A stretch of 64,000 bases of DNA from Sphyrna mokarran (lineage: Eukaryota): NCBI GenBank assembly GCA_024679065.1, contig JAGIQG010000002.1:25172001-25236000 (forward strand), written 5' to 3'. Position 1 is the first letter of the stretch; the number at the start of each line of letters is the position of its first letter. The position numbers were made by a program, and so were the translations under genes. The notes beneath the pieces were generated by a model, which did no database searches, was not told the origin of the DNA, and saw only the letters and a list, made by a program, of their open reading frames with translations. Shown piece by piece: positions 4,292 through 58,663 of this stretch.

Positions 4292-4363
4292 AAATTTAAA
4301 GGGGAATCGTATAACGGATCTGATTCCAGAAACTTTTGAAGGTCTCTCACATTTGAAATATTT
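4292..4363 (+). CDS. LRRC37: LRR exon A (72 nt, phase 2-2): [24 protein letters not shown]
   Basis: Acceptor ttaactttcag, donor gtaagt, 24-aa typical LRR consensus. Confidence 0.92.
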
Positions 4364-58300: not shown

Positions 58301-58663
58301 ATGGAGTAGGACTGGAAAGTAGGGGTGAGATTGAAGATCAACCACAGAATGATGGGGCAGGGTCCAAATACTCCATGGCTTACTCCTGCTCTTCTTTCTT
58401 ATGTTTTCCTATGTAAATATTCCAGAAAGATTACTGGAAAGAAGTTTCTCCTTTTGAAAAGTACAAGGTAGATTTAGCTACTGTTTCAAAATGTTTGTTT
58501 TAATCATTATTACTACTTCATTATTATTCATTCTGCAGGTATATATCTCATACTTTAAAATGTTGTTTATGCAAGTATCCACATCTGGACAAGTTAATTT
58601 TGACAAGAAATGTGGAGATTAACTGCAAGAATATAATTTGCACCATTTCACTGATGCAGTGTT
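4292..58663 (+). CDS. LRRC37: Partial multi-exon gene (6 internal exons, 488 coding nt): LRRC37-like leucine-rich-repeat protein; start and end lie outside the exons found
   Basis: Exons join in frame without stops: [162 protein letters not shown]. The atypical last repeat and CCLC cap match recalled human LRRC37A (..[42 protein letters not shown]..). The gene structure is seen directly; the family name rests on recall. Confidence 0.82.
5690..7170 (+). mobile_element. Degenerate CR1 LINE ORF2 fragment
   Basis: [49 protein letters not shown] and [11 protein letters not shown] remnants with stops and frameshifts. Confidence 0.8.
6668..6794 (+). repeat. Minisatellite, about 6 copies of a 21-bp unit (ATGTAGACCCCTAATTGAGAA)
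   Basis: Tandem copies with small substitutions and indels are directly visible inside the CR1. Confidence 0.9.
7180..9060 (-). mobile_element. CR1/L2-group LINE, 3' part with RT remnants and long 3' UTR
   Basis: [27 protein letters not shown] and [32 protein letters not shown]. The same 3' UTR recurs at 10365-10445 and 14420-14700. Confidence 0.8.
9390..10015 (+). mobile_element. Highly degenerate Penelope-like RT/GIY-YIG fragment
   Basis: [12 protein letters not shown] segment and other segments colinear with the reverse complement of 42943-44060. Confidence 0.55.
10446..11122 (+). mobile_element. Penelope-like element 3' end (GIY-YIG endonuclease remnant plus pLTR)
   Basis: [36 protein letters not shown]; 3' UTR with CTGAAGAAGGA..TCCGAAA and the caaataaacc..ttggactttaa..ggcatctccacat terminus. 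Confidence 0.85.
11004..11037 (+). ncRNA. Minimal hammerhead ribozyme motif in Penelope pLTR (3' side degenerate)
   Basis: CAC-CTGAAGA-A-GGA-ACAACAC-TCC-GAAA-ACTT-TG. Confidence 0.55.
11169..11270 (-). mobile_element. About 100-bp 3' end of the young CR1 family seen at 55556-57206 and 60357-61343
   Basis: Nearly identical to 60357-60462, including the (ATAGAAC)n tail. Confidence 0.85.
12601..13551 (+). mobile_element. 5'-truncated young CR1 LINE (RT C-terminal half, 3' UTR, TTCTATG tail)
   Basis: [42 protein letters not shown]..; one premature TGA at 12953; (TTCTATG)3 tail. Confidence 0.95.
17840..18150 (-). mobile_element. CR1 ORF2 fragment
   Basis: [27 protein letters not shown]. Confidence 0.7.
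18590..20535 (+). mobile_element. Degenerate CR1 LINE 3' part, split by a MITE-like insert (about 18795-19545) and a SINE
   Basis: KFADDTKI near 18752, [18 protein letters not shown], then [20 protein letters not shown] after the SINE. Confidence 0.75.
19878..20147 (+). mobile_element. tRNA-derived V-type SINE
   Basis: A-box-like GCAGTGGTTAGCAC, B-box-like GGTTTGATTCC, V-domain TGTGTGGAGTTTGCATGTTCTCCCCGTG, AATAAA/TTTAAAC tail. Confidence 0.85.
20912..20983 (+). CDS. LRRC37: LRR exon B (72 nt, phase 2-2): [24 protein letters not shown]
   Basis: Polypyrimidine tract then tacag acceptor, donor gtaagt, LRR consensus. Confidence 0.92.
22530..22715. mobile_element. Short Penelope insertion with inverted pLTR and 12-bp TSD GTCCAAGTTTCA (22518-22529, 22716-22727)
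   Basis: Imperfect inverted arms of about 60 bp, the 3' half of the hammerhead motif (GAAAGCTAGT), and the GGCATCTCCA terminus shared with 11040-11122. Confidence 0.8.
23480..26520 (+). mobile_element. Cluster of older CR1 fragments (endonuclease and RT remnants) hosting younger insertions
   Basis: [19 protein letters not shown] (EN start), [44 protein letters not shown]; tail ttctatgtttctg near 26280. Confidence 0.7.
24126..25233 (+). mobile_element. 5'-truncated CR1 LINE nested in an older CR1
   Basis: [55 protein letters not shown] tail. The host sequence resumes after it (aacaggaagac / tgattattacc). Confidence 0.92.
26525..31235. mobile_element. Decayed PIF/Harbinger DNA transposon: HARBI1-type transposase on + (about 26525-27530) and convergent Myb/SANT-like partner ORF remnants on - (about 28100-30470)
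   Basis: [61 protein letters not shown] and an acidic C-terminal tract. On the minus strand: [29 protein letters not shown] and [15 protein letters not shown] coiled-coil remnants. Multiple frameshifts; TIRs not resolved. Confidence 0.8.
31240..32116 (+). mobile_element. Degenerate CR1 LINE 3' part
   Basis: [42 protein letters not shown], and 3' UTR ending gctcctgcatcttatg. Confidence 0.85.
33358..33429 (+). CDS. LRRC37: LRR exon C (72 nt, phase 2-2): [24 protein letters not shown]
   Basis: Acceptor tgtttgttttccaccag, donor gtaagt, LRR consensus. Confidence 0.93.
35128..35840 (+). mobile_element. Rex1/Babar-type LINE 3' fragment nested in the Gypsy element
   Basis: [51 protein letters not shown], (AAATC)n tail. 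Confidence 0.85.
36462..36775 (-). mobile_element. HE1/V-type SINE nested in the Gypsy element
   Basis: Reverse of the tRNA head, V-domain (GAGGAAACCGGAACACCC) and CR1-like tail (agaatcatagaatc). Confidence 0.8.
38272..38530 (+). mobile_element. V-type SINE (same family as 19878-20147)
   Basis: GGGCAGCATGATGGCACAGTGG head, V-domain, gtgacactaacaaataaacttta tail. Confidence 0.8.
38531..39150. mobile_element. Non-autonomous Harbinger-like (MITE-like) element
   Basis: GC-richer noncoding segment ending AAAATTCTGCCCC. Similar TIR-like ends occur at 42875-42887 (AAAATCCCTCCC), 52113 (GGGCAATTTT) and 58268-58280 (AAAATCCAGGCCC). Confidence 0.45.
41144..41215 (+). CDS. LRRC37: LRR exon D (72 nt, phase 2-2): [24 protein letters not shown]
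   Basis: Acceptor tgctctcttttag, donor gtaagt, LRR consensus. Confidence 0.93.
41703..42503 (+). mobile_element. 5'-truncated CR1 LINE (same family as 12601-13551)
   Basis: [47 protein letters not shown] tail. Confidence 0.93.
42943..44080 (-). mobile_element. Penelope-like element fragment (RT C-terminus plus GIY-YIG)
   Basis: [32 protein letters not shown] and [28 protein letters not shown]; frameshifted. Confidence 0.88.
44082..44510. mobile_element. Rex1/Babar-type LINE with inverted 5' segment
   Basis: 44082-44138 is the reverse-complement tail; 44139-44510 is forward sequence matching 35355-35745. Confidence 0.8.
44511..46031 (+). mobile_element. CR1 LINE ORF2 internal fragment lacking its 3' tail
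   Basis: [70 protein letters not shown]; contains an antisense CR1 tail at about 45154-45216. Confidence 0.92.
46262..47738 (-). mobile_element. Young 5'-truncated CR1 LINE with uninterrupted RT C-terminal frame and a 550-bp 3' UTR containing a V-SINE-like segment; probable TSD ATCAA
   Basis: 302-aa ORF 47724-46816 ([27 protein letters not shown]); (TTCTTTG)n-like tail at 46262-46292; ATCAA at 46257-46261 and 47739-47743. Confidence 0.92.
48350..51734 (+). mobile_element. Internally deleted Mag-type Gypsy LTR element with both LTRs (48350-48616, about 51477-51734); TSD TCTAC/TCTAT
   Basis: PBS-like TTGGCAATGAAG; gag [37 protein letters not shown] and [25 protein letters not shown]; integrase [26 protein letters not shown]. 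The two LTRs are clearly diverged, so the insertion is old. Confidence 0.9.
51980..52054 (+). CDS. LRRC37: Atypical LRR exon E (75 nt, phase 2-2): [25 protein letters not shown]
   Basis: Acceptor aatttttag, donor gtaagt; resembles the recalled LRRC37 repeat [25 protein letters not shown]. Confidence 0.88.
52113..52922. mobile_element. Non-autonomous Harbinger-like (MITE-like) element
   Basis: GC-rich noncoding block in AT-rich intron, bounded by GGGCAATTTTACC and GATAATATCACCC (imperfect TIR); internal resemblance to 18795-19545. Confidence 0.55.
53885..54960 (+). mobile_element. Highly degenerate CR1 LINE fragments
   Basis: Remnants of [38 protein letters not shown] and the 3' UTR. Confidence 0.65.
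55556..57206 (+). mobile_element. Young 5'-truncated CR1 LINE nested in an older CR1 (55380-55555 and 57207-57930)
   Basis: [53 protein letters not shown]; few single-base frameshifts; (TTCTATG)4 tail. Confidence 0.95.
57300..57595 (-). mobile_element. HE1/V-type SINE
   Basis: Reverse of cagtggttagc..gacttggattcgattcc head, V-domain, and tail tctgcactgtagaattttattc. Confidence 0.82.
58539..58663 (+). CDS. LRRC37: Cys-rich LRR C-cap exon F (125 nt, phase 2-1): [41 protein letters not shown]
   Basis: Acceptor ttattcattctgcag, donor gtaagt at 58664, in frame with exon E, CCLC plus three further Cys. Confidence 0.88.

Follow-up and report, generated by a model that had tools for sequence, protein, structure and literature searches.

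Introduction

The closest described relatives of the gene reported here are the canonical LRRC37 proteins, which carry six tandem leucine-rich repeats (LRRs) with a splice junction within each of them, and for which exon-skipping isoforms have been reported (PMC3530683). In the available text of three studies (PMC3530683, PMC10754148, PMC6920530) LRRC37 is treated in mammals only, and a review still calls it an amniote family (PMC11625661), its gene adjoining ARHGAP27 in amniotes (PMC5127012). A shark LRRC37A already appears in a 2026 preprint, which ties the family to internally fertilising vertebrates and describes mouse LRRC37A as acrosomal, required for fertility and binding the Na/K-ATPase (10.64898/2026.09.11.751093). 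In this study, a stretch of 64,000 nucleotides (nt) from Sphyrna mokarran (C771:25172001-25236000; hereafter the window) was analysed, which an earlier inspection of the sequence (the original prediction) had proposed to contain an LRRC37-like gene. In the reading that we favour with some confidence, the window gene is a 10-exon, 516-amino-acid (aa), seven-LRR paralogue of LRRC37 devoid of a transmembrane (TM) segment, which pre-dates the split between cartilaginous and bony fishes, was likely born in a genome duplication, and likely encodes a soluble sperm protein, predicted to be acrosomal, that would grip a conserved partner through its concave face.

Structure of the gene and of its product

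Exons were called by a splice-site scan requiring an open frame, AG before and GTAAGT after. Seven such exons were found on the + strand of the window, encoding six LRRs and a six-cysteine cap (Table 1). Mapping of database proteins back to the genome completed a gene of 10 exons, with 386, 72, 72, 72, 81, 72, 72, 75, 125 and 524 coding nt, which join into a single open frame of 516 codons with eight phase-2 introns followed by one of phase 1; an alternative acceptor 27 nt upstream yields 525 codons instead of 516. The exons thus belong to an intact gene. The original prediction had claimed six exons encoding five LRRs and a cap, colinear repeat for repeat with LRRC37. Its two end exons (4292-4363 and 58539-58663) stand, but the 81-nt exon has to be added, which gives six LRRs in the window and one repeat more in the gene than in LRRC37. 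This exon was probably overlooked, since the predicted peptide of 162 aa equals the total of the exons without it (488 nt). The likeness of the Asn-less 25-aa last repeat to that of LRRC37 is borne out by its exclusive pairing with the sixth canonical repeat.

Table 1. Exons of the window gene and the intron spanned by contigs; positions without a contig name are those of the window.
Feature	Position	Strand	Length	Evidence and remarks
Exon 1: start codon, signal-like stretch, LRR-NT	C771:25130197-25130582	+		Upstream of the window
Exon 2: LRR1	C771:25155534-25155605	+		Upstream of the window
Exon 3 of 10: LRR2	4292..4363	+	72 nt	LRR_8, E 2e-4; alternatively skipped (in run X3, out in X1 and X6)
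Exon 4: LRR3	20912..20983	+	72 nt	Covered and joined to 21068 in 4/4 runs
Intron, GT..AG	20984..21067	+	84 nt	Spliced contigs
Exon 5: LRR4, 27 aa, His-Gly motif common with LRRC37	21068..21148	+	81 nt	Scan and spliced contigs; best pairing with canonical LRRC37 repeat 4, score 53
Exon 6: LRR5, one of the pair yielding the extra repeat	33358..33429	+	72 nt	Scan; loose contig ends of X2 and X6
Exon 7: LRR6	41144..41215	+	72 nt	Scan and protein mapping; pairs with canonical repeat 5, score 48
Exon 8: LRR7, atypical, 25 aa, without ladder Asn	51980..52054	+	75 nt	Pairs only with canonical repeat 6, score 36; other pairings negative
Exon 9: six-cysteine C-terminal cap (CCxC...C...C...C)	58539..58663	+	125 nt	Scan; single copy in the genome
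Exon 10: tail and stop	C771:25236363-25236886	+	524 coding nt	Begins 363 nt beyond the window end

The check for splice-spanning reads that had been proposed gave a partial answer. The join between 20983 and 21068, across the 84-nt intron, is seen in contigs of all four runs, which come from four organisms and whose RNA status is a guess, none of the 14 listed runs being recorded as RNA and tissue and library being unrecorded. Loose contig ends were found at the 4292 exon in one run, at the upstream exon with the 4292 exon skipped in two, and at the 33358 exon in two, and the junctions between 33429 and 58539 were drawn from the open frame and 26 database proteins. A filter combining an LRR motif with exon lengths of 72, 75 or 81 nt returned six exons on the + strand, none on the - strand and none in any of 200 block shuffles, a lenient control, as the motif was composed after the exons were known. 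Pfam scans of single exons gave generic LRR matches alone, in three of the seven, and an Rfam scan of the window returned nothing informative for the gene.

The product comprises a hydrophobic N-terminus, an LRR-NT, seven LRRs, the six-cysteine cap and a charged tail predicted by AlphaFold to be helical, in a model that is weak outside the LRRs. N-terminal hydropathy peaks at 1.3-1.5 over residues 1-10 in 3/3 window-type proteins, and the cysteines of the cap stand at offsets 0, 1, 3, 21, 26 and 33 in all six window-type proteins compared. The LRRC37AB_C domain (PF14914) and the TM exon that had been expected downstream are replaced by a hydrophilic tail, with which the gene ends. Pfam scans detected no PF14914 in 7/7 window-type proteins, and no TM segment was apparent in the window protein, whose 19-residue hydropathy maximum after the cap is 0.39; this maximum is at most 1.26 in seven of seven bony-fish window-type proteins, compared with 3.39 in shark LRRC37 and 2.48-3.46 in three other canonical proteins.

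Queries with the cap exon recovered 26 of 26 candidate proteins at 76-100% identity, 25 of them named as shark, ray or chimaera and one unnamed; the nearest protein compared is that of Mustelus. Database isoforms omit single repeats, and such skipping is allowed because the exon phases are symmetric. The RefSeq and UniRef models carry mixed automatic names: the LRRC37-like label that had been anticipated is borne by several RefSeq models, and others are called LGR4-like, LRRTM1-like or artichoke-like. These names, together with scores of up to 120 bits that generic LRR proteins attain via their many repeats, are what could be said for a member of another LRR family, such as an LGR/RXFP receptor, an LRRTM or a small leucine-rich proteoglycan. 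We consider this assignment extremely improbable: no TM or seven-transmembrane region follows the LRRs, the last LRR and the cap are matched by LRRC37 proteins only, and the ESM Atlas and Foldseek/PDB matches are to generic LRR proteins only.

The canonical LRRC37 of the shark and its relation to the window gene

Matches to PF14914 in a profile search of the genome contigs were confined to C849, where a complete LRRC37 was found (C849:31493219-31645453) that has a TM helix and PF14914 in addition to six LRRs, the cap and a long exon. Its exons (72-72-72-81-72-75-119 plus the long exon) reproduce the layout of the window gene minus one 72-nt exon. Growth hormone, in the form of one exon, and an RRM gene are among its neighbours, and its chromosome bears a Wnt pair 2.6 Mb from LRRC37 as well as a tau-family gene, a setting of the 17q21 type that the window locus does not share. 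Seven database proteins of other shark and ray species match it, excluding an assembly artefact, and five sharks and rays agree with one another at 94-99% identity over its PF14914 stretch. The true LRRC37 orthologue is therefore the gene on C849, and the window gene, which the original prediction had taken for a chondrichthyan orthologue, is a paralogue. Orthology of the window gene to amniote LRRC37A/B, for which speak the LRRC37 family being the closest one and the LRRC37-like names, becomes highly improbable in view of the six-LRR, PF14914- and TM-bearing gene beside growth hormone, of the tetrapod LRRC37 proteins, which side with the C849 type both in profile scores and in the tree, and of the coelacanth, which carries both types. 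Exon phases are alike at the two loci; chromosome and neighbours differ.

Three side observations concern the canonical gene and its surroundings. Both paralogues contain a single very short intron, at different positions (84 nt at window 20984-21067; 94 nt at C849:31558805-31558898), the other introns measuring 5-25 kb. About 3 kb of G-rich low complexity, possibly a poorly resolved repeat, separate the growth-hormone exon from the RRM gene (C849:31460001-31463400). In Narcine, a second, shortened canonical-type protein (P0117, P0227), either an isoform or a local duplicate, has its LRR-NT directly joined to the cap without LRRs, followed by a TM segment.

That LRRC37 proteins are the nearest relatives of the window gene, as originally proposed, agrees with profile-profile comparison, reciprocal profiles and HMMER. 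In hhalign, the LRR-NT of the window protein matched that of shark LRRC37 with probability 76 (E 2e-5), and the last LRR plus cap with probability 96, whereas the tail proved unrelated to the LRRC37AB_C tail (probability 0.3). Repeats pair in order between the paralogues, the window gene having one extra, and its repeats 5 and 6 are mutual best matches within the protein (score 54). A profile built from window-type sequences only (last LRR and cap) gave 15-26 bits for the five LRR-bearing shark LRRC37 proteins, while none of 56 other LRR proteins exceeded 6.1 bits; the converse test, with a canonical profile against window-type proteins, likewise holds. Identity between window-type and canonical members is 28-37%.

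A HMMER search with a profile of both paralogues against 1.84 billion representatives returned 120 matches: 4 window-type, 113 canonical-type and 3 spurious. The 104 matches outside the reference set were assigned by their nearest reference, and none went to window-type or bichir references. Among the 30 matches looked up by name, the window type was found in Latimeria, Acipenser, Huso and Polyodon, and the canonical type in Latimeria, bichirs, frog, newt, axolotl, caecilian, reptiles, birds and mammals; no teleost or holostean member was among them. A word-based search with the LRR region gave 26 chondrichthyan proteins and then generic LRR proteins, missing the bony-fish members, so that its blank in tetrapods and teleosts is a weak one. 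In a tree without outgroup (30 sequences, 190 columns, LG+G4), the window type separated from the rest with support of 99.5/100; tetrapod LRRC37, which also scored higher on the C849-type profile, grouped with the C849 gene, and the bichir sequence formed a long, weakly placed branch (52.9/51). On these comparisons, the window gene is best described as a paralogue of LRRC37 in a clade of its own, comprising sharks, rays, chimaera, coelacanth, sturgeon and paddlefish. Because each clade contains cartilaginous and bony fishes, the duplication predates their split and the family traces to the jawed-vertebrate ancestor, an age given in the original prediction and already in the preprint, where LRRC37A is reported from cartilaginous fishes (10.64898/2026.09.11.751093).

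Beside these results, two observations on bony fishes are worth recording. For sturgeons and paddlefish (P0094-P0097, P0209-P0214) the window type alone was named, a canonical copy not being seen among the matches. The canonical-type proteins of bichirs (P0187, P0226) are short and keep a TM-like segment with no Pfam match to PF14914, which indicates that this domain is not universal.

Compared with canonical LRRC37 (human LRRC37A/B, mouse Lrrc37a and the C849 gene), the window gene shares the N-terminal hydrophobic stretch, the LRR-NT, a phase-2 exon for each LRR (72-72-72-81-72-75 nt), the His-Gly motif in the 27-aa repeat, the Asn-less last repeat, the six-cysteine cap, the phase-1 intron after it, and the exon-skipping isoforms reported for mammals (PMC3530683). 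It differs by having seven LRRs instead of six, with the same junction pattern, by the lack of LRRC37AB_C and TM, by its unrelated tail, by its chromosome and neighbours, by a conserved rather than fast-changing concave face and, in searches of limited reach, by not being found in tetrapods. Mammalian secreted or TM-less forms (the shed ectodomain, exon-8-skipped isoforms and LRRC37A4) likewise present a soluble LRR domain, there with a signal peptide (PMC3530683). However, these arose recently from the canonical gene through splicing, cleavage or a stop codon, whereas the window type is a separate gene, present from chimaera to sturgeon, that has kept its cap.

Genomic neighbourhood and origin of the pair

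The window gene sits between an IDI1-like match upstream and a WD40 gene downstream, and NOG1, LARP4-like and adenosine-deaminase genes lie farther out; the LARP4-like and several other neighbour exons had no Pfam match. We take the NOG1, WD40, adenosine-deaminase and LARP4-like genes to be GTPBP4, WDR37, ADARB2 and LARP4B, in an order that presumably resembles that of human 10p15, and the RRM gene near LRRC37 on C849 to be RDM1. Hox9 was detected on C771, C113 and C849 (3/3 loci); the profile matches give Hox9 only, and the HoxA, HoxB and HoxD labels of the chromosomes are our assumption. Calcium-channel beta subunits were found on C771, C849, C113 and C838, the last (C838:8201863) being a fourth paralogue, whose contig gave no Hox9 match. 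Both LRRC37 paralogue loci thus lie on paralogous chromosomes, each with Hox9 and calcium-channel beta genes. A genome-duplication origin of the pair is therefore fairly probable, given that both chromosomes bear Hox genes and common calcium-channel-beta paralogues. Still ahead of the jawed-vertebrate split, the same paralogue could instead have arisen when a small segment was duplicated and transposed, as could be argued from neighbouring gene families not common to the two loci, from the presence of two of four possible copies and from the lack of an outgroup sequence; the Hox9 and calcium-channel-beta paralogues on both chromosomes speak against it and make it unlikely, and every intron being retained argues against a retrocopy. 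A comparable pattern is that of Pdx2, one of the ohnologues that only slow-evolving fishes have kept, retained in cartilaginous fish and coelacanth (PMC2944030), the pattern being the sole likeness, as the proteins are unrelated.

Conservation of the concave face and proposed function

With face positions grouped as 5, 7 and 3, 8 only after the residues had been inspected, positions 5 and 7 of each repeat were identical at 13/14 sites between the shark protein and each of the coelacanth, paddlefish and sturgeon proteins. All four positions combined gave 20-21 identities out of 28 in the same pairs, compared with 31-48% in the non-core remainder. At positions 5 and 7, canonical LRRC37 proteins share 1-3 of 12 residues with one another, and the two paralogues 3-6 of 12. 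From shark to sturgeon, and in contrast to canonical LRRC37, the window type barely varies in its concave face, which suggests a conserved partner of the window type's own. In the mechanism that we propose, the hydrophobic N-terminal stretch would route the protein into the secretory pathway and, having no anchor, it would stay in solution, either inside the acrosomal vesicle or at the surface of the sperm. There it may bind a protein partner, which could be a component of the egg coat or the acrosomal matrix or, by analogy with the mammalian LRRC37 proteins, the ectodomain of a channel or an ion pump. The length of the solenoid may be tuned when phase-2 single-repeat exons are skipped, and the helical tail, not common to bony-fish members, may oligomerise the protein.

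The link to sperm comes from a sturgeon proteome whose supplementary Table S3 lists XP_034769890.1 (286 aa, 32.237 kDa) among spermatozoa proteins, down 1.38-fold following freezing with dimethyl sulfoxide (PMC11291920). The sturgeon window-type protein P0212, of 286 aa and 32.237 kDa, is identical in both values. In the same study, an LRRC37A3-like protein with no assigned paralogue type (KAK1159025.1) rose 3.07-fold in the medium, and acrosin 3.03-fold (PMC11291920). Acrosomes are reported as present in chondrichthyans, sarcopterygians, bichirs and acipenseriforms and absent in holosteans and teleosts (PMC13762310), and the family members among the 30 named matches come only from lineages with reported acrosomes. 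A similar loss pattern that tracks the acrosome is described for ACR, of the ACR/TMPRSS12 ohnologues (PMC13762310), where again the proteins are unrelated and the pattern is the sole likeness. Taken together, these data suggest that the product is likely a soluble, probably acrosomal, LRR binding protein of sperm.

Alternatively, the gene could encode a secreted LRR protein acting outside sperm, as a matrix, neural or immune ligand trap, and be incidental in sperm proteomes, for instance via seminal fluid. Conservation over the LRR region is strong, with 81% identity between shark and chimaera and 54% between shark and coelacanth. Such strong conservation is unusual for a fertilisation protein. 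The language-model look-alikes in the ESM Atlas are also secreted matrix LRR proteins, and the LRR domain of human LRRC37B binds FGF13A in neurons (PMC10754148). However, the testis-restricted ancestral expression reported for LRRC37 (PMC3530683), the sturgeon match in the spermatozoa table (PMC11291920) and the distribution that tracks the acrosome (PMC13762310) make a role outside sperm rather doubtful.

Several points weigh against the soluble sperm protein that we favour. The AlphaFold model is weak (pLDDT, a per-residue confidence measure, 51 and pTM, a global one, 0.44 overall, with about 65-87 in the LRR part); and the putative signal peptide was judged from hydropathy. The proteome link goes through length and mass, XP_034769890.1 not being among the accessions displayed for P0212, and 349 proteins, mitochondrial ones included, leak as KAK1159025.1 does, so that this behaviour does not show an acrosomal location (PMC11291920). 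The absence from teleosts and tetrapods comes from searches of limited reach, in which clustering at 50% hides members and 30 of 120 matches were named. As to the duplication, C771 has no Wnt or tau-family match, an ARHGAP linker family lies on C771 and C1215 and not on C849, the immediate neighbours of the two loci include no paralogous pair, Hox9 is 71 Mb from the window gene on C771, and no cyclostome or amphioxus member was among the matches, and the tree is without outgroup.

Repetitive sequence in and around the window

Repeats make up about 43% of the 664 kb around the window. Degenerate reverse-transcriptase-like open reading frames crowd the introns (window 12500-13465, 23979-24758, 41579-42082, 44724-47739, 55537-57071 and 60230-61339), and we take them, by their motifs, to be of the long interspersed nuclear element type. 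An intronic tandem array at 6667-6794 contains 6.1 copies of a 21-nt unit, and short intronic pieces at 21199-21244 and 21470-21500, probably repeats, match unrelated contigs in several runs.

Implications for the LRRC37 family

The shark LRRC37A and, with no recognition of their nature, the RefSeq models of the window gene were already known. The literature searched, with most subscription journals outside its coverage, was silent on a split into two paralogues, the second devoid of TM, and on a correlation with the acrosome; sequences of the window type might nevertheless be contained in figure 1A or the supplements of the preprint. Fish proteins labelled LRRC37A-like should be treated with caution, as they may belong to either paralogue.

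The canonical-type LRRC37 proteins of bichirs (P0187, P0226) and of the frog Mixophyes (P0142) come from externally fertilising lineages, against the description of the family as one of internally fertilising vertebrates. Two paralogues that parted long ago, and that are represented in sturgeons, bichirs and a frog, all of them external fertilisers, point to the acrosome rather than to internal fertilisation as the better correlate. As a tentative proposal, LRRC37 may be an ancient jawed-vertebrate pair of acrosome genes, born by genome duplication, one anchored in the membrane and located on the HoxB-type chromosome, the other soluble and on its HoxA-type counterpart, retained only where the acrosome is, sturgeons, bichirs and frogs with their external fertilisation among them, and lost together with it in gars and teleosts, the soluble copy keeping the ancestral ligand-binding face. 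The role of the LRR region of LRRC37 has been called unresolved (PMC3530683), and a naturally soluble paralogue with a near-invariant face, apparently present in the sperm of farmed sturgeon, makes the question of its ligand testable by pull-down. If the sperm reading is true, the family would be tied to the acrosome rather than to amniotes or primate brains, and if the two copies are indeed an acrosome pair, the soluble one could be used to find the original partner of the family.

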